From positions 124,001 to 188,000 of the forward strand of contig NZ_SMNA01000007.1 of NCBI RefSeq assembly GCF_004353825.1: a stretch of DNA of 64,000 nucleotides. Direction: 5' to 3'. The position numbers and the translations under genes were made by a program. This DNA comes from Occultella glacieicola (GTDB taxonomy: Bacteria; Actinomycetota; Actinomycetes; Actinomycetales; Beutenbergiaceae). The notes under the pieces were generated by a model, which worked only from the letters and a program-made list of their open reading frames with translations, had not been told where the DNA came from and searched no databases. Position 1 is the stretch's first letter, and each line of letters opens with the position of its first letter. This document shows positions 53,019 to 64,000 of this stretch, piece by piece.

Positions 53019-54010
53019 GCACGGCGGCGACCGCCAAGGGTGCGCGGCCGCGCACGTGGCCGTGGGTGCTTGTCCTTTCCGGCTTTGCGACCGGCCTGCT
53101 CGGTCTGCTCCCGTGGCTGCTCACCGGGGCGAGGCTGCCGTTGCAGAACCTGTGGGATACCGAGATCCGTCCCGGTGACATGCCGCTGGTTCTGCTGCCG
53201 TTCAGCCAGTACGCCCTCACCCTGCTGCCCGGCATGCTGGTCTGGGGCTCCGCTCTCGCTGGGTGCGTGGTCCGGCTCCATCCGGTCCATGCCCGGCTGA
53301 GGGGAGCCATGGTGGCGACGCTGGGCTTCCTGGCGGTGGCGGTGATCGCGACCTCGCAGACCGCGCTGGTGGTTCACGGCGGATTGCGTGCCGATGACCC
53401 CAGAACCGACCGGTACTTCGTGGCGGTCCTGAGCGTGATCGTCGCCTCGGTCGTGGTCGGGATTGTGGTGCTCGCGCTGCTGGCCTGCGGACGGCGCCCG
53501 AGTGCCTCGATCGCTGCGACCGTAGCGGCGCTGGCCGGCGGGATCTGGCTCGACGCACTCATCGCGACCCCGTTCGGCGGCGCACCGTCGACCCTGCAGG
53601 TGGAACTCCTGAGCTACTCCCGCTGGCTCCCAGCGCTATTCGTCGGCGCCGTGCTTGTGTGGTGTGGCGTCGGCGGGCTTGGCAACGCGGTGGCGTGGGC
53701 GGTCAGTCCCGTGCTGCTGTGGGTACTGCCGGCCGGCTTCACCGCGGTCAACTACGCAGCCGGTTCTCGGGTGCTGGCCGGAGATCTCGAGGAGATGCGT
53801 GACGCCGCGCTCGACGTCTTCAGGTCGGCGCTGGGCCCGGCCGGACCTTCACTGGAGTATGCGGGGGTCGCGTTGGGCCTCGGTGTGCTCGGCACCGTCA
53901 TTCGCGCATGCCACGCGCGCCGGCGGGCCTCCTCGAATGGTGCCTCCGACACGACGCCGGCGCAGCGGGCACCGTTGCCCGATCGGGCAGTTCCTCGCTC
54001 AAAGGCCTGA
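53015..54010 (+). CDS. Polytopic membrane protein
   Basis: About 8 hydrophobic segments; GTGA overlap. Confidence 0.7.
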   Translation: MSTAATAKGARPRTWPWVLVLSGFATGLLGLLPWLLTGARLPLQNLWDTEIRPGDMPLVLLPFSQYALTLLPGMLVWGSALAGCVVRLHPVHARLRGAMVATLGFLAVAVIATSQTALVVHGGLRADDPRTDRYFVAVLSVIVASVVVGIVVLALLACGRRPSASIAATVAALAGGIWLDALIATPFGGAPSTLQVELLSYSRWLPALFVGAVLVWCGVGGLGNAVAWAVSPVLLWVLPAGFTAVNYAAGSRVLAGDLEEMRDAALDVFRSALGPAGPSLEYAGVALGLGVLGTVIRACHARRRASSNGASDTTPAQRAPLPDRAVPRSKA

Positions 54011-54069
54011 CGCGCCATGGTCCGGGCCGCTACTGTCACCGGGTCACATCGGACGTCGGAAGGGCCATC

Positions 54070-56064
54070 GTGCCATCGACAGTGATCATCCCCGCCAGCG
54101 ACGTTGCCACCCGGGTCATGCGCACGATCCTGGTCCTGGCAGGCGTCGCGCTCGCCCTGCTGCTGATGCGGCCGTCGGCCGCCCACGCCGACGTCACCGA
54201 CCTGACACCGCCACCGGACGGCTGCCTCGCCTATGACGTGGACGCCGTGCCCTTCGCTGAGACCTCCGACCCCCAGACGCTCGACCTGCAGCTCGACGGC
54301 CCGGTGATCCAGGTCATCATCGAGTGGGCCGGGATCTGGCAACCCGCACCGCTCGACCCGACGATCGGGGTCGAGGTGGTCGGACCGGGTGGCACCCTCT
54401 CCGGCGCGTACGCCGGCACCGAGTCCACGGACGCCACCGCATTGCCGGCCGTCCCGGAGCCGATCGTGTACGGCTACGTCGCCGACATCACCGAGCTCTT
54501 CGGGGCCGGCGCCGAAGGCACCTACACGGTGAACATCACGCCGCCCATCGACGGCATCGACGCGGACGAGGCCCGCTGGGGCGGCGCCACCGTGACCGCG
54601 GTCTACGACAGTTCGCCCTGCGACGACGTCGCCACCGTGATCTGGAAGACCGGCGCCGACTTCTACTTCGGCGGCAACTCGACCTCCTCGCCGACGACCG
54701 AACTGATCGTCTACGACTGGGGCTACCCGCTCACCGAGGACTACGTCGCCTCCTTCTCCACCTCGCACGCGGGGGCCGACAACGCCGCGACCGACTGCCG
54801 GGTCTCCTCCATCTGGGTGGCCACCGGCGACGGGACGGCGCCCGGGAGTTCGGAGGACCTCGTCGACGACGACGGCGTCCCGAACCCGGCGTACGGGGGC
54901 GTCGAGGGCATCGTGTCCCCGTTCACCCCACCGAGCCAGCCGTGCCCACCTGCGACGGTCACGGCCCCCGTGGTCTCCTTCACCCCCGGCAGCATGGGCC
55001 CGGAGCAGACGCTGGTGTACTTCGACGTGCTGATCCCGGCGGGTTCCACGTGGGCGGCGTTCCAGCTCGAGTCGCCGGCCGACAACGGCGGCCACCCCGG
55101 TCTCCCGGAGTCCGGCGCCTGGAGCGGCGCCGGCCTGCTGATCCTGCCGGCGTTCGTGCCGCCGGCACCGGAGATCGCCCTCGAGAAGACCGTTCTGGAC
55201 GGCGCCGGGGCCGCCTGCCCCGGGGTGGAGGGCACCGACGAACTCGTCTCGGGCGAGCCGACCACCCCGGTGACCTACTGCTTCCGGGTCACGAACACCG
55301 GCGACGTGGCCCTCTTCCCGGTCACGCTCGACGACCCTGACCTGGGCATCACCGACGCCGACATGACCCTGGTTTCCGGTGACGACACCGTGCCGCTGCA
55401 GCCGGGGGAGGAGTTAGTCTACTCCTACGACTCCACGATCACCGCGGACCTGCTGAACACCGCGACCGTCACCGGCCAGCCGGAGGGTGGCGGCGAGCCG
55501 GTCACCGACACGAACGACGCGTCGGTCCAGATGTATGTGATCACCGGCACCGTGACCCCGTTCTGCGAGGCGGACGCCCCGTACCTCGGGTACGACATCC
55601 AGACGAACGCGCCCGGGACGACGGCGACCATCACCTTCACCGGTGACGGCGGTTCGGAGTCGGTCACCGTGCCCGTCGGGACCGGCAGGGTCCTCTGGCC
55701 GGGCGCGGAGGTCGGCCCGGACGGCGTCGGGATCGACTGGCCCGGCTGGGACCAGAACGCCGACGGCGACTGGTTCGAGAACGCCGCCAACCCCTACGCC
55801 TGGGCGCGCCCGGACGTGCAGATCACGGTGACGGTCAACCCGACCACGGAGCCGGTCACGGTCGCCTACCCCCCGGGTACGCCGACCTGTGTGACGGCGC
55901 CCCCGCCGAACGAGCCCCCACCGAGCGGTCGGCCGCCGTCGAGCCCGCCACCGCTCGCGGAGACCGGTGCCGGTGATCCTGCCGGGCCGGCCGGCCTCGC
56001 CGCGGCGATGACCCTGTTCGGCGCCGCGCTCGTGGTGTTCTCCCGCCGCCTGGCTCGCCACTGA
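54070..56064 (+). CDS. Sortase-anchored surface protein (LAETG) with Ig-like/DUF11-type module
   Basis: Signal peptide ending AHA; IALEKT..VTYCFRVTNTGDV..NTATVTG; LAETG plus TM plus RR; start uncertain. Confidence 0.8.
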   Translation: MPSTVIIPASDVATRVMRTILVLAGVALALLLMRPSAAHADVTDLTPPPDGCLAYDVDAVPFAETSDPQTLDLQLDGPVIQVIIEWAGIWQPAPLDPTIGVEVVGPGGTLSGAYAGTESTDATALPAVPEPIVYGYVADITELFGAGAEGTYTVNITPPIDGIDADEARWGGATVTAVYDSSPCDDVATVIWKTGADFYFGGNSTSSPTTELIVYDWGYPLTEDYVASFSTSHAGADNAATDCRVSSIWVATGDGTAPGSSEDLVDDDGVPNPAYGGVEGIVSPFTPPSQPCPPATVTAPVVSFTPGSMGPEQTLVYFDVLIPAGSTWAAFQLESPADNGGHPGLPESGAWSGAGLLILPAFVPPAPEIALEKTVLDGAGAACPGVEGTDELVSGEPTTPVTYCFRVTNTGDVALFPVTLDDPDLGITDADMTLVSGDDTVPLQPGEELVYSYDSTITADLLNTATVTGQPEGGGEPVTDTNDASVQMYVITGTVTPFCEADAPYLGYDIQTNAPGTTATITFTGDGGSESVTVPVGTGRVLWPGAEVGPDGVGIDWPGWDQNADGDWFENAANPYAWARPDVQITVTVNPTTEPVTVAYPPGTPTCVTAPPPNEPPPSGRPPSSPPPLAETGAGDPAGPAGLAAAMTLFGAALVVFSRRLARH

Positions 56065-60095: not shown

Positions 60096-60839
60096 TCAGC
60101 GGCCGGCGAGCCAGCCGGTGAGCCGGTCCGGGCGGTCGGTGATGATGCCGTCCACCCCCGCGTCGACCAGCGGCGCCCACTCCGCGGCAGTGTTCGGCGT
60201 CCAGACGTGCGCCTCCAGGCCGGCCTCGTGGATCCGGGCCAGCACTTCGGGTCGTTCGAGGATCAGGGTCGCGGGCGGGTTCAGGGCCACGACGCCCAGT
60301 TCGGCCGCGAGCTCCAGGGTGGCGTCGTCGAACTCGCTGATGAGCAGGCCCCGGCGCAGTTGCGGAGCCACCGCCTGCAGGGTGCGCAGCATCTCCACGG
60401 AGAAACCCTGGACCAGGACTCGGTCGTCGATCCCCGCCTCGGTGACCTCGGCGAGCAGCAACTTCGTCGGTTCGGCCGGCCAGGCGCCCTTGAGTTCGAG
60501 CAGCAGACCGAGGCCCCGGTGGCGCAGCAGCACCTCGACGACATCCGCGAACAGCGGCAACGCGGTGCCGGAGTAGGCGGGCGCGAACCACGAGCCCGCG
60601 TCGAGGTGACGCACCTCGGCGGCCCGGAGGGCGGCGACCGGGCCGGAACCGTCGGTCGTGCGGTCCACGGTGTCGTCGTGGATGACGATGCCGACGCCGT
60701 CCTCGGAGACCTGGACGTCGATCTCGATCAGGTCCGAGCCGCCGAGCGCGGCCGACTCGAAGGCGGGCAGGGTGTTCTCCGGAGCGACCGAGGAGTTACC
60801 CCGGTGCGCGATGATCAGTGGGCTCGTCGTGATGGGCAC
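60096..60839 (-). CDS. Glycerophosphodiester phosphodiesterase
   Basis: AHRG, PENT, EIDV, HD and GIITDRP motifs. Confidence 0.92.
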   Translation of the reverse strand: MPITTSPLIIAHRGNSSVAPENTLPAFESAALGGSDLIEIDVQVSEDGVGIVIHDDTVDRTTDGSGPVAALRAAEVRHLDAGSWFAPAYSGTALPLFADVVEVLLRHRGLGLLLELKGAWPAEPTKLLLAEVTEAGIDDRVLVQGFSVEMLRTLQAVAPQLRRGLLISEFDDATLELAAELGVVALNPPATLILERPEVLARIHEAGLEAHVWTPNTAAEWAPLVDAGVDGIITDRPDRLTGWLAGR

Positions 60840-61004: not shown

Positions 61005-62183
61005 ATGGATGCAGATCCGGCGACCGATGCCATAGGTGGCGTCGTGGTGCGCTGGCTGCGACGTGGCATCCTCGCCCTGGGCACCGCCACGGCAGGGGTC
61101 CTGATCGGCGCCGGAATCGCCGTGGCCGCGGCGGGGGAGCAGCCGGAGACTGGCTCCGAGGTGGCTGGCGGCTTGCTCGACGGGCCAGTCGGCCTCGTGC
61201 AGGAGATCGCCGCACCGGAGGACGTCGGCATCGAAGACGTTGTGTCGCGCGCGAGTGAGCCCGTGCTCGAAGTGCTCGAGCCGCTGGTCGCGGAGGTGGT
61301 CGAGCCGGTCGCCGAGCCTGTGGTCGCGGAGGTGGTCGAGCCGGTCGCCGAGCCGGTGGTTGCCGAGGTGGTCGAACCGGTGGTTGCCGAGGTGGTCGAA
61401 CCGGTGGTTGCCGAGGTGGTCGAACCGGTGGTTGCCGAGGTGGTCGAACCGGTGGTTGCCGAGGTGGTCGAACCCGTCACGGCGCCGATCCTGGACGAGG
61501 TGGCTCCGGTGACCGATCCGGTCGTCGACCACGTACTCGCCCCAGTGACGCAACCGGTGCTCGACACCGCGTCCTCAGTTCTCACCGGGATGACCGCACC
61601 TGTCCGCGCCGTGGTGGATCCGGTCCTGGACCCGATCCGTGAGCCCGTCCGTCACGTGCTCGACCTTGTGGGACGCGCTCCGGGCGGCGTCGTCGTGGAT
61701 GTGCTGGATCTTTCGACCCCGGTGGTGGGCGCCGTGATCGCGCCGGCGCCCGATGCGTCAGGTCCGCTCGCGGCGGCTCACGACCCGGCTGACCTGAACG
61801 ACGCGGCGGCGGTCCGCGGGCTCGGTCCGCCCGCCGTCGGCGTACTCCAGATGGCAGCGGGATCGGCCGATCTCGTCCCCGCACCGCAGTTGGTCGGGGA
61901 GTTCGTCGGTTCCAGTCCGCCGGGTGATCCGCCGTTGGTGGAACCTGCCGACACGCCTCGGTCGGCCGACGAGCCAGCGCGCGCACCGCTGCGCCAACTC
62001 GGCACCGCTCCCGGGAACGACCAGACCCCGTTGCCGACCAGCGCTCAGCCGCGCCCGGGCGAGGCCACGTCGGCGACAAGCATCGACGTGCAGCCGCGCG
62101 TTGGGCTCGTCGCGATCGATGGTGACGACATTGGTCCGCGGGTGAGCGCCGATCCGTTCGACATTCCTGTCTCGCCTGGGTGA
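61005..62183 (+). CDS. Secreted low-complexity Val/Pro/Glu-rich protein; candidate regulatory leader
   Basis: Signal-like RWLRRGILALG..AVAAA; EPVVAEVV repeats; ends ADPFDIPVSPG*. Confidence 0.7.
   Translation: MDADPATDAIGGVVVRWLRRGILALGTATAGVLIGAGIAVAAAGEQPETGSEVAGGLLDGPVGLVQEIAAPEDVGIEDVVSRASEPVLEVLEPLVAEVVEPVAEPVVAEVVEPVAEPVVAEVVEPVVAEVVEPVVAEVVEPVVAEVVEPVVAEVVEPVTAPILDEVAPVTDPVVDHVLAPVTQPVLDTASSVLTGMTAPVRAVVDPVLDPIREPVRHVLDLVGRAPGGVVVDVLDLSTPVVGAVIAPAPDASGPLAAAHDPADLNDAAAVRGLGPPAVGVLQMAAGSADLVPAPQLVGEFVGSSPPGDPPLVEPADTPRSADEPARAPLRQLGTAPGNDQTPLPTSAQPRPGEATSATSIDVQPRVGLVAIDGDDIGPRVSADPFDIPVSPG
61278..61469 (+). repeat. In-frame tandem repeat: 2 x 36 bp then 5 x 24 bp
   Basis: GA(A/G)CCGGTGGTTGCCGAGGTGGTC x5 at 61350-61469. 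Confidence 0.92.
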
Positions 62184-62262
62184 TCTGAGCCCCGTGAGCC
62201 CTGCTCACGTCGGCATTAACCCGAGCAACTTTCGGACATTTCAGATCATTCGAACAGGAGTG
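62162..62262 (+). promoter_or_regulatory. Predicted RNA structure sequestering the SD of the downstream gene
   Basis: CATTCCTGT (62162-70) pairs with ACAGGAGTG (62254-62); TGATCTGA (62181-88) pairs with TCAGATCA (62241-48). Confidence 0.6.
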
Positions 62263-62267
62263 GATTC

Positions 62268-63767
62268 ATGCATGCCATTGTGAGAACTGCATTACGCACA
62301 TTGATCGTGACCGGCGGTCTTGTCATAGCCGGTGCCGGCGCCGCGCAGGCGGCCGAGGGGGACCTGCTCGACGACCTGGCGGCGAGCGTCCAGGACACCG
62401 TCGGAGGTGACGTGATCACCGATGCCGTGGCGGACAACACGGTGACGGTGCCGGTCTCGATCCCGGTGACGGTCCGCGACATCGCGGTCGGAGTCGTCGG
62501 CGACTCCACAGTGAACTCCACGGAGGCCGATGCGAACCCCACGGCTCCCGCCGTGCCCCCATCCGAACCGGTGGAGGTCGTTGCGGAGCCCGCGGCGAGC
62601 GACGATGCCCTCGTCGAGGATGTGGCGGCGGACAATACGGTGACGGCGCCGATCAGCGTCCCGGTGAGCACCGACGATGTCGCGCTGGGGGTGCTGGGCG
62701 ACGCGGAGGTCTCTTCCTCGCAGGGGCAGGAGGAGGCGACGGCGGTCCAGGCAGCACCGGCGACCCCGGTGGACGTGGTCACCGGTGGTGATGGCGGTTC
62801 ATCTGACGCGGTAGCTTCCGATGAGGTGGCGTCTGATGTGGTGGCCGACAACACTGTGACGGCTCCGGTTGTGGTGCCGGTGACGGTCGGTGATGTGGCG
62901 CTGGCGGTCGTGGGTGATTCGGCTGTGGGTTCGACTGGTCCGAGTGCTCCGGCGGGTGCTGGTTCGGTGGACGTGGTCACCGGTGGTGACGAGGGTTCGT
63001 CTGACGCGGTGGCTTCGGACGCCGTGGCCTCTGATGTGGTGGCCGACAACACTGTGACGGCTCCGGTTGTGGTGCCGGTGACGGTCGGTGATGTGGCGCT
63101 GGCGGTCGGGGGTGATTCGGCTGTGGGTTCGACTGGTCCGAGTGCTCCGGCGGGTGCTGGTTCGGTGGACGTGGTCACCGGTGGTGATGGCGGTTCGTCT
63201 GACGCCGTGGCCTCTGATGTGGTGGCCGATAACACTGTGACGGCTCCGGTTGTGGTGCCGGTGACGGTCGGTGATGTGGCGCTGGCGGTCGTGGGTGATT
63301 CGGCTGTGGGTTCGACTGGTCCGAGTGCTCCGGCGGGTGCTGGTCCGGTGGACGTGGTCACCGGTGGTGACGAGGGCTCATCCGACGCCGTGGCCTCCGA
63401 TGAGGTGGCCTCTGATGTGGTGGCCGACAACACCGTGACGGCGCCGATCACCGTTCCGGTCACGGTCGGAGAGCTCGCGCTCGGCGTCGGTGGTGACTCC
63501 GCCGTGATCTCCACCGGAGCGACCATCCCGACCGAGCCGACGGTCTCGCCGCCGAGCCAGCCGGGCGCCCGATCCCCGCAGGGGCCGGTACCCGCTGCTC
63601 CGATCGGCGCGATGCCGTCGAACGCATCCGGCCCGGCAGCAACCGAGACCGGCGTTGTGCTCGCGGAGACCGGTCCGGTGTCCGCGGCCGCGGCGACCGG
63701 GCTCGCCCTGGTGCTCATCGTGCTCGGTGGCCTGCTCGTCGGATTCCGGACGTGCACCGGACGATGA
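62268..63767 (+). CDS. Sortase-anchored (LAETG) protein with six chaplin-like repeats
   Basis: Signal peptide ending AQA; DNTVT(A/V)P..VPV..G.VA..V.GDS-type motif x6; LAETG plus TM. Confidence 0.75.
   Translation: MHAIVRTALRTLIVTGGLVIAGAGAAQAAEGDLLDDLAASVQDTVGGDVITDAVADNTVTVPVSIPVTVRDIAVGVVGDSTVNSTEADANPTAPAVPPSEPVEVVAEPAASDDALVEDVAADNTVTAPISVPVSTDDVALGVLGDAEVSSSQGQEEATAVQAAPATPVDVVTGGDGGSSDAVASDEVASDVVADNTVTAPVVVPVTVGDVALAVVGDSAVGSTGPSAPAGAGSVDVVTGGDEGSSDAVASDAVASDVVADNTVTAPVVVPVTVGDVALAVGGDSAVGSTGPSAPAGAGSVDVVTGGDGGSSDAVASDVVADNTVTAPVVVPVTVGDVALAVVGDSAVGSTGPSAPAGAGPVDVVTGGDEGSSDAVASDEVASDVVADNTVTAPITVPVTVGELALGVGGDSAVISTGATIPTEPTVSPPSQPGARSPQGPVPAAPIGAMPSNASGPAATETGVVLAETGPVSAAAATGLALVLIVLGGLLVGFRTCTGR
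62769..63500 (+). repeat. Four near-identical intragenic repeats (periods 198, 198, 183 bp)
   Basis: GTGGACGTGGTCACCGGTGGTGA at 62769, 62967, 63165 and 63348. Confidence 0.9.
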
Positions 63768-63916: not shown

Positions 63917-64000
63917 GTGGCGAGTGTTGAGGTGGTGCCGGCCGACCTCGCCGCTGCCGCCACGAGGCTCGAGGAGGCACGCGACGGCGTCGCGTCCCTG
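63917..64000 (+). CDS. 3'-partial ORF, possibly WXG100/type VII substrate-like
   Basis: GGGGAG RBS; VASVEVVPADLAAAATRLEEAR; only 28 codons visible. Confidence 0.35.
   Translation, partial: MASVEVVPADLAAAATRLEEARDGVASL

Follow-up and report, generated by a model that had tools for sequence, protein, structure and literature searches.

A candidate arrest-type leader and a predicted Shine–Dalgarno-occluding RNA junction upstream of chaplin-like surface protein genes in actinobacteria

The Locus

The stretch of DNA analysed here, referred to as the window, comprises 64,000 nucleotides of Occultella glacieicola (contig NZ_SMNA01000007.1, positions 124,001 to 188,000). The system in question consists of an open reading frame (ORF) for an apparently exported leader, a gap that is predicted to fold into an RNA junction over the next gene's Shine–Dalgarno (SD) sequence, and that gene, the target, which encodes a chaplin-like surface protein (Table 1). 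As judged by sequence comparison, this leader–junction–target module is real and widespread in actinobacteria. The 84 members compared below are what is left of 91 candidate rows after the removal of 7 spurious ones (wrong-frame or non-leader ORFs), and 79 of them have a gap of at most 112 nt.

The leader has a basic–hydrophobic–AxA layout at its N-terminus, VAEVVEPV repeats in its body, and the C-terminus ADPFDIPVSPG-TGA; the signal-like N-terminus, repeat spacer, and distinct C-terminus described in the initial annotation are thus all present in the ORF. By a crude pattern, 60 of the 72 complete leader ORFs begin with a signal-like segment. A hydrophobic segment lies a short way before the tail in 32 of the 84 leaders; the window leader lacks it (KD 0.99). 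Since the gene upstream, for a glycerophosphodiester phosphodiesterase, is divergent, the leader is the first gene of its unit. Its stop codon lies 84 nt from the target ORF, and no sigma-70 promoter-like or terminator-like site was seen in this gap, nor does TAnnnT occur in any of the 84 gaps; a promoter of the target's own in the gap had been named in the initial annotation as something that would count against its proposal.

Neither window protein (nor any of the 6 leaders searched in all) matched a Pfam or NCBIfam family above the cut-off. The ESM Atlas gave no usable match for the window tail and only unnamed clusters for another leader, and a motif scan of the window's own genome found no second leader copy.

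Table 1. Features of the locus (coordinates of the window; SD, Shine–Dalgarno sequence)
Feature	Coordinates	Strand	Remarks
Glycerophosphodiester phosphodiesterase gene, divergent	60096..60839	-	PF03009, E 6e-48; context, outside the proposed system
Leader ORF	61005..62183	+	392 aa from a presumed ATG; signal-like N-terminus, low-complexity Val/Pro/Glu/Ala body, conserved tail, no Cys
Signal-peptide-like segment	61005..61133	+	RWLRR, hydrophobic core, AVAAA; cleavage site and start codon presumed from sequence
Conserved tail F-D-I-P-V-S-P-G-stop	62157..62183	+	candidate arrest motif; I-P-V codons are also anti-SD in the window's genus
Outer stem, 5′ arm (anti-SD)	62162..62174	+	pairs with 62251-62262, p 0.59-1.0
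Stop-codon helix, 5′ strand	62179..62188	+	pairs with 62241-62250; compensatory pairs +1 to +3 after TGA across members
Inner hairpin P2	62189..62214	+	ensemble fold and alignment
Inner hairpin P3	62221..62235	+	overlooked in the initial annotation
3′ arm of the closing stems	62241..62262	+	holds SD AGGAG at 62256-62260
Target gene	62268..63767	+	499 aa; signal peptide, six chaplin-like beta repeats, LAETG (63660-63674), transmembrane segment, and basic tail

The RNA Junction

In the ensemble fold of 62100–62310, from which all pair probabilities for the window are taken, 62162–62170 pairs with 62254–62262 (p 0.95–1.0), 62172–62174 with 62251–62253 (p 0.59–0.87), and 62181–62188 with 62241–62248 (p 0.9–1.0), and these stems enclose a hairpin formed by 62193–62199 and 62203–62209 (p 0.99–1.0). 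All the pairings proposed in the initial annotation were therefore recovered where it had placed them. Its picture of a single enclosed hairpin has to be amended: the small hairpin stands, but a second one (62221–62235) also lies inside. Because this second hairpin, the base of the first (62189–62191 with 62212–62214), and two G-U pairs (62179–62180 with 62249–62250) add to the stems already described, the element is predicted to be a three-way junction. Taken alone (the last 21 nt of the ORF plus the gap), it has a z-score of -4.9, whereas the wider region 62120–62300 folds no better than its shuffles (z -1.15). Rfam returned no matching family, the only match being a chance one to mir-598 (E 1.2) outside the element.

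Among the short-gap members, fold stability has z < -2 in 79/79 (median -4.9 relative to shuffles), the two inner hairpins are folded in 74, and the stop codon is paired at long range in 70, its register relative to the stem being fixed across members. The SD is paired with the last six leader codons at p > 0.5 in 77 of the 91 candidate rows, as against 28 when the upstream part is shuffled; in the window's own genome, only one of 120 ordinary co-oriented gene pairs (120 tested of 153) has both z < -2 and pairing of the SD with upstream codons. The arms bind with -12.3 kcal/mol when cognate and -8.8 kcal/mol when non-cognate. The stem pairs, which the initial annotation had proposed to examine for covariation, do covary: the +1 pair after the stop is G-C in 24 members, C-G in 19, and U-A in 13; two-sided changes affect 12 of 20 pairs in an alignment of 33 sequences; and the covariation score of these sequences is 0.201, compared with 0.103 for shuffled and at most 0.143 for slid controls, figures that relatedness inflates. 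The modelled junction is, in short, conserved and covarying; it occludes the SD and has its anchor on the leader stop codon.

Two other approaches were set aside. RNAalifold found no pairs on MAFFT alignments because the helices were out of register in them, and it was replaced by per-sequence folding and a hand-set structure; a covariance model, R1, was too lossy, matching 3 of 141 genomes and missing the window's own locus, so that its non-matches are uninformative.

Two sequence motifs were observed in the gaps. On the 3′ side of P2 (window 62211–62216), 53 of the 79 gaps retain YGGCA, beyond what pairing explains, and it is possibly a tertiary contact or a protein site. In 10 of 22 Streptosporangiaceae gaps (loci L366, L368, L371, L373, L377–L381, and L385), (G)TCAGG lies 28–38 nt before the target ATG, in many cases with TA(A)C after it; it is complementary to the Pro-Asp codons, with no covariation with this putative partner. 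It may also resemble a BldN-type -10 box.

Distribution

A search of 60 related genomes with the N-terminal 161 aa of the target matched 12, all in the window's family, and the leader was present in all 12, as a long ORF ending in [PL]VSP[GA]-TGA preceded by [IV], mostly with an aromatic residue or Leu at -8/-9, a gap of 79–96 nt, and a shared fold. A DNA pattern matched 54 of 301 genomes of the order, as against 8 control matches; inspection of 37 of its loci gave 10 true members, two of these with an apparently frameshifted target. A scan of the whole collection yielded at least 120 matches, and the 80 loci examined contained true members in Microbacterium, Leucobacter, Isoptericola, Promicromonospora, Luteimicrobium, and one unclassified actinomycete, most of the other rows being due to chance.

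An unbiased test was provided by 80 metagenome loci collected through a profile of the target N-terminus, of which 3 with short upstream DNA and 16 exact duplicates were removed. Of the resulting 61 distinct loci, 56 showed xPD-stop directly (53 [ST]PD, 2 PPD, and 1 APD), 3 had the tail in another frame, and 2 were recognised by inspection or as a near-duplicate. A class-wide target profile placed the leader also in family f23 and before some, not all, Streptosporangiaceae chaplin genes; it did not stand before any Streptomyces-type (f41) chaplin locus examined. The pattern [DE]PxFSPD-stop occurs in 23 of 46 Streptosporangiaceae genera with no control match. The subgroups are linked, since a query of body residues 10–110 from a VSPG leader retrieved 12 proteins, 7 of which end in VSPG, SSPD, or TSPD.

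Narrower searches returned little. The tail profile A5 gave mostly noise, with true matches only in f1, f7, and f10 among 30 loci inspected, and the tight pattern P..P..DxSPD was confined to f7 (5 of 251). With narrow patterns on small samples of f31, f36, f41, f52, f53, f56, and f62, where matches only were judged, no true member was found; nor was one found in 32 f54 genomes with the narrow pattern, the single match (L393) not being an ORF end. Viral contigs gave no match.

The Leader Tail

Part of the constraint on the last four codons lies at the RNA level: TCT and CCT, which are rare in the genome (1.1% and 3.6% of Ser and Pro codons), dominate at -3 and -2. Pro occupies -2 in all 84 members, a count that owes something to xP[DGA]-stop having partly defined membership. 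Further upstream, in the xPD group (n=60), the tail contains P-13 in 53 leaders, P-10 in 49, D-17 in 42, D-5 in 57, and D-1 in 60, with synonymous variation at Pro-10 and Pro-13; R-23 is found in 39 and uses all four CGN codons. The identity of this tail is 0.46, compared with 0.23–0.31 elsewhere in the leader. In Streptosporangiaceae (120 homologues from a whole-protein search), the last 16 residues are conserved at 0.97, as against 0.25–0.85 elsewhere. Among the leader loci compared in this family, the stop is TGA 13 times and TAG 14 times, and all four TCN codons occur at -3. The window group (n=20) has P-5 in 19 leaders, with all four codons, and [DE]-7 in 17.

The tail peptide is thus, on sequence grounds, conserved in its own right, because Pro-10 and Pro-13 vary synonymously and the 16-residue Streptosporangiaceae tail is kept without an evident SD stem. 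The conserved C-terminal motif on a divergent body that the initial annotation had envisaged is clear in the xPD and FSPD groups and limited to about 8 residues in the window group. The body of the Streptosporangiaceae leaders (P0001–P0120) contains a conserved block at residues ~113–145 (NAEAMAGRTVDGLTSQSKP-like, 0.71–0.85), which suggests, from its sequence, that the exported body has a function of its own.

A Modelled Ribosome at the Leader End

In the 79 short-gap members, the median cost of opening the ribosome-binding site falls from 13.9 to 7.8–9.0 kcal/mol only when the A site of a modelled ribosome is placed within the last five codons; a ribosome 7–15 codons earlier produces no drop. 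The fall exceeds 3 kcal/mol in 53 members. In the window, a ribosome in the last codons lowers the cost from 12.3 to 8–11 kcal/mol. The unmasking of the SD by a ribosome at the leader end, as initially proposed, is therefore backed by the modelled median, the window's own gain being small.

The Target and Neighbouring Genes

The designation of the target as chaplin-like, which comes from the initial annotation, holds by indirect homology only, as the window target has no Pfam or NCBIfam match, PF03777 included. The ChpA-C domain was matched by 2 of 6 family orthologues (best E 7.7e-6); the chaplin cut-off was passed by 4 of 4 tested xPD-group targets and by neither of two window-type targets, and profile–profile comparison linked these two sets at 98.6%, a value partly owed to the signal peptide. 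By these comparisons, the targets of the window's family are probably divergent chaplin homologues. In an AF2 model of low confidence (pLDDT 49), the repeats form stacked beta strands; the structure that it matches best, the CsgA fibril (Z 9.8, rmsd 3.2, 106 aligned), shares this rank with other beta-solenoids and serves as a lead only. The targets of other leaders are secreted repeat proteins.

A family of small secreted peptides, with a signal peptide and 3–4 (A)IGNWPDPM repeats, was met in 36 of 41 genomes of genus g20 in family f10 (L317:1294-1500 on the minus strand, and L354–L365); it has the look of a precursor family of the signalling or RiPP type. At L354 and L356, a PGSSPD leader is followed by copies that lack the signal peptide.

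Elsewhere in the window, 53908–56064 (+) encodes another exported protein with an LAETG and transmembrane tail, where the genome scan flagged no xP[DGA] leader. The genes 3′ of the surface protein (window ~63918–64000 and L044:4900-6887) seem to resemble those for a WXG100/type VII substrate and a protein with an alpha/beta-hydrolase domain. In L034–L036 and L042, what is presumably an FMN riboswitch-like sequence on the opposite strand, upstream of the leader, heads a transporter operon, and as this operon is divergent, the leader here too begins its unit. One contig, G023:C1, has the locus twice (at 56.6 kb and 3656 kb; L038 and L043), with identical junctions near both contig ends, possibly through an assembly overlap.

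Interpretation and Alternatives

Leader and target probably form a two-gene unit under translational control. The closing helices of the junction are predicted to pair the last codons and stop codon of the leader with the SD of the target, which would be off by default because these helices hold the SD against the leader codons. A ribosome at the last ~5 codons would melt the 5′ arm and free the SD; the nascent tail, x-S-P-[D/G/A]-stop with F/Y, D, and P upstream, would slow this ribosome during elongation between Pro and Asp/Gly or at termination, and the slowed ribosome would prolong the open state. Pro-Asp and Pro-Gly peptide bonds form slowly. Since the signal peptide of the leader might already be at the Sec translocon, the paused complex might keep the mRNA at the membrane, where the aggregation-prone target might be made beside the export channel and where pulling on the leader might end the pause. 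We give this explanation as a whole a probability of roughly 0.55. Its parts differ: translational coupling of leader and target is very probable from the models; a pause that depends on the tail, whether at Pro|D/G/A or on termination, is, on the sequences, fairly probable; and release by export force, leading to translocon-side synthesis of an aggregation-prone protein, is conceivable but somewhat doubtful. A broader idea, which we regard as speculative and rather unlikely, is that the leaders represent an unnamed, widespread class of arrest peptides (xP[D/G/A]-stop) that would allow functional-amyloid synthesis only as long as the Sec translocon has the leader's ribosome docked and is pulling on it. 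In that case, outside events (folding, or capture by wall or fibre) could set the pause through the long unstructured spacer, and the leader would sense the assembly of the surface layer, not the capacity of Sec.

Several observations weigh against a regulated pause followed by delivery to the translocon. Roughly one member in four was selected through a DNA pattern containing both anti-SD and SD, which favours the RNA numbers, and the members are related to one another. Opening the ribosome-binding site gains less than 3 kcal/mol in 26 of the 79 members, and in the window, with the stop codon in the A site, the cost falls only from 12.3 to 10.1, a gain of 2 kcal/mol. In Streptosporangiaceae, the gaps are 125–372 nt long, and the SD is neither consistently occluded nor freed. 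At 2 of 12 loci examined, the leader precedes a signal-less peptide of the 68-aa IGNWPDPM-repeat type, which therefore fits poorly with delivery to the translocon. Positions -4 to -1 of the tail (and -5 in the window's genus) double as anti-SD, so that tail conservation is not purely peptide evidence. At residue -3, S, T, P, A, and R all occur, mostly encoded by NCT codons (CGT in the case of Arg), which is what a constraint on the RNA would predict. Among the 20 leaders of the window's subgroup, identity over -5 to -17 (0.23) does not exceed that of the low-complexity body (0.23–0.35), and several of its few conserved residues are also anti-SD.

The last two of these points, together with the conserved mid-body block of Streptosporangiaceae, which suggests a function for the leader protein itself, favour the chief rival, in which there is coupling but no regulated pause. 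Terminating ribosomes would briefly melt the stem and so fix the stoichiometry of leader to target; the leader would be a secreted assembly partner (a rodlin-like accessory or nucleator), and its tail an anti-SD, a C-terminal binding or processing motif, or both. We consider this a tenable but less probable account because the tail is retained where its RNA role changes. In the window's genus, the anti-SD has shifted to the I-P-V codons, with Ser encoded by TCG, and yet VSPG persists; in Streptosporangiaceae, the tail is kept where no SD stem is evident. Moreover, in 33 of the 84 members, a second TGA lies 4 nt earlier in another frame, and the signal-bearing ORF ignores it, keeping the xPD/G/A frame. 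The stretch of conserved positions also reaches over about 25 residues, which matches the exit tunnel in length, and outside Streptosporangiaceae the leader bodies are of variable length and low complexity.

A feedback of the SecM type, in which arrest would persist when Sec export is poor and the surface protein would be induced by secretion or envelope stress, is improbable. The anatomy is that of secM–secA (PMC7897499), and insertion of the hydrophobic segment present in 32 of the 84 leaders could exert a pull; however, the target is a Sec substrate, so that its induction on export failure would add load, and the window leader has no such segment. For the same reason, a translocon-coupled licensing of synthesis fits better than secretion monitoring. 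Least probable is an RNA-level element (a processing or stability signal, or a protein-binding site) acting on a separately regulated target mRNA independently of leader translation, for although the YGGCA of P2 is not accounted for by pairing and the Streptosporangiaceae (G)TCAGG does not covary with its putative partner, junction cleavage is unneeded to explain why the SD pairs with coding codons, and the stop codon keeps a fixed register to the stem.

The module adds a candidate stalling motif and a covarying cis-regulatory RNA, both of them new and the latter without a counterpart in Rfam. It also suggests a putative role for numerous "hypothetical proteins" of Microbacterium, Isoptericola, Streptosporangiaceae, and their relatives, as well as a testable answer to the question of how cells keep the synthesis of amyloid-prone surface proteins at the export channel.

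Comparison with Known Systems

The comparison draws on PMC10987492, PMC7897499, PMC12992588, PMC4255298, and PMC12856214. The initial annotation had stated that no such system was described for chaplin-like genes, and our search likewise found no paper on such a leader, within a coverage that ended short of subscription papers and of the supplementary tables of upstream ORFs (uORFs) from the Chiba-lab screens. Insofar as these sources describe them, screens for exported arrest leaders concentrated on uORFs of sec/yidC genes or on RAPP-type motifs in proteins of less than 300 aa, and because of this focus the present family would be missed.

Like SecM, MifM, VemP, ApcA, and ApdA/ApdP (PMC7897499), the leader is an exported uORF with a conserved C-terminus, and a stem that hides the SD of the next gene overlaps the position of the ribosome at the tail, an overlap that is predicted and covarying in the short-gap members. 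Unlike in these systems, the target is a chaplin-like or other secreted repeat protein rather than a sec or yidC product; the leaders are 200–500 aa long (392 in the window), compared with the 80–200 aa given for Sec/YidC monitoring substrates, the Streptosporangiaceae homologues being about 145–330 aa among the matches listed; and the tail, in which no RAPP, RGPP, or RAPG motif was found (nor the RAPP/RAGP of SecM-type leaders), abuts the stop codon directly. Of the secM/mifM-like leader initially proposed, the exported ORF, the tail, and the SD stem therefore stand, and membership of the family does not, because the target is a secreted substrate and not a component of Sec or YidC.

The stop-dependent NSP-stop and NAP-stop leaders are likewise exported and arrest with the stop codon in the A site, according to PMC10987492. 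They share with the present leader a conserved x-S/A-P near the stop; here, in contrast, Pro is penultimate and followed by D, G, or A, the hosts are Actinomycetota, and the target is neither secA nor secDF. According to PMC12992588, exported RAPP/RGPP arrest leaders precede non-Sec genes and include CruR and the S. lividans SLIV peptides. The present candidate resembles them in its arrest-type build, in the diversity of the genes it precedes, and in its occurrence in Actinomycetota, and differs in its motif and, in the window, in the lack of a Cys/His ligand site; the main text of that paper contains neither "chaplin" nor "SPD". As to the target, it is secreted, sortase-tailed, and built of chaplin-type repeats like the long chaplins ChpA-C of Streptomyces (PF03777; PMC4255298), with the difference that its repeats are divergent and below Pfam detection and that the Streptomyces-type loci lack the leader. 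Thus, the regulatory module is apparently undescribed, being built like an arrest leader and lying outside the named families.

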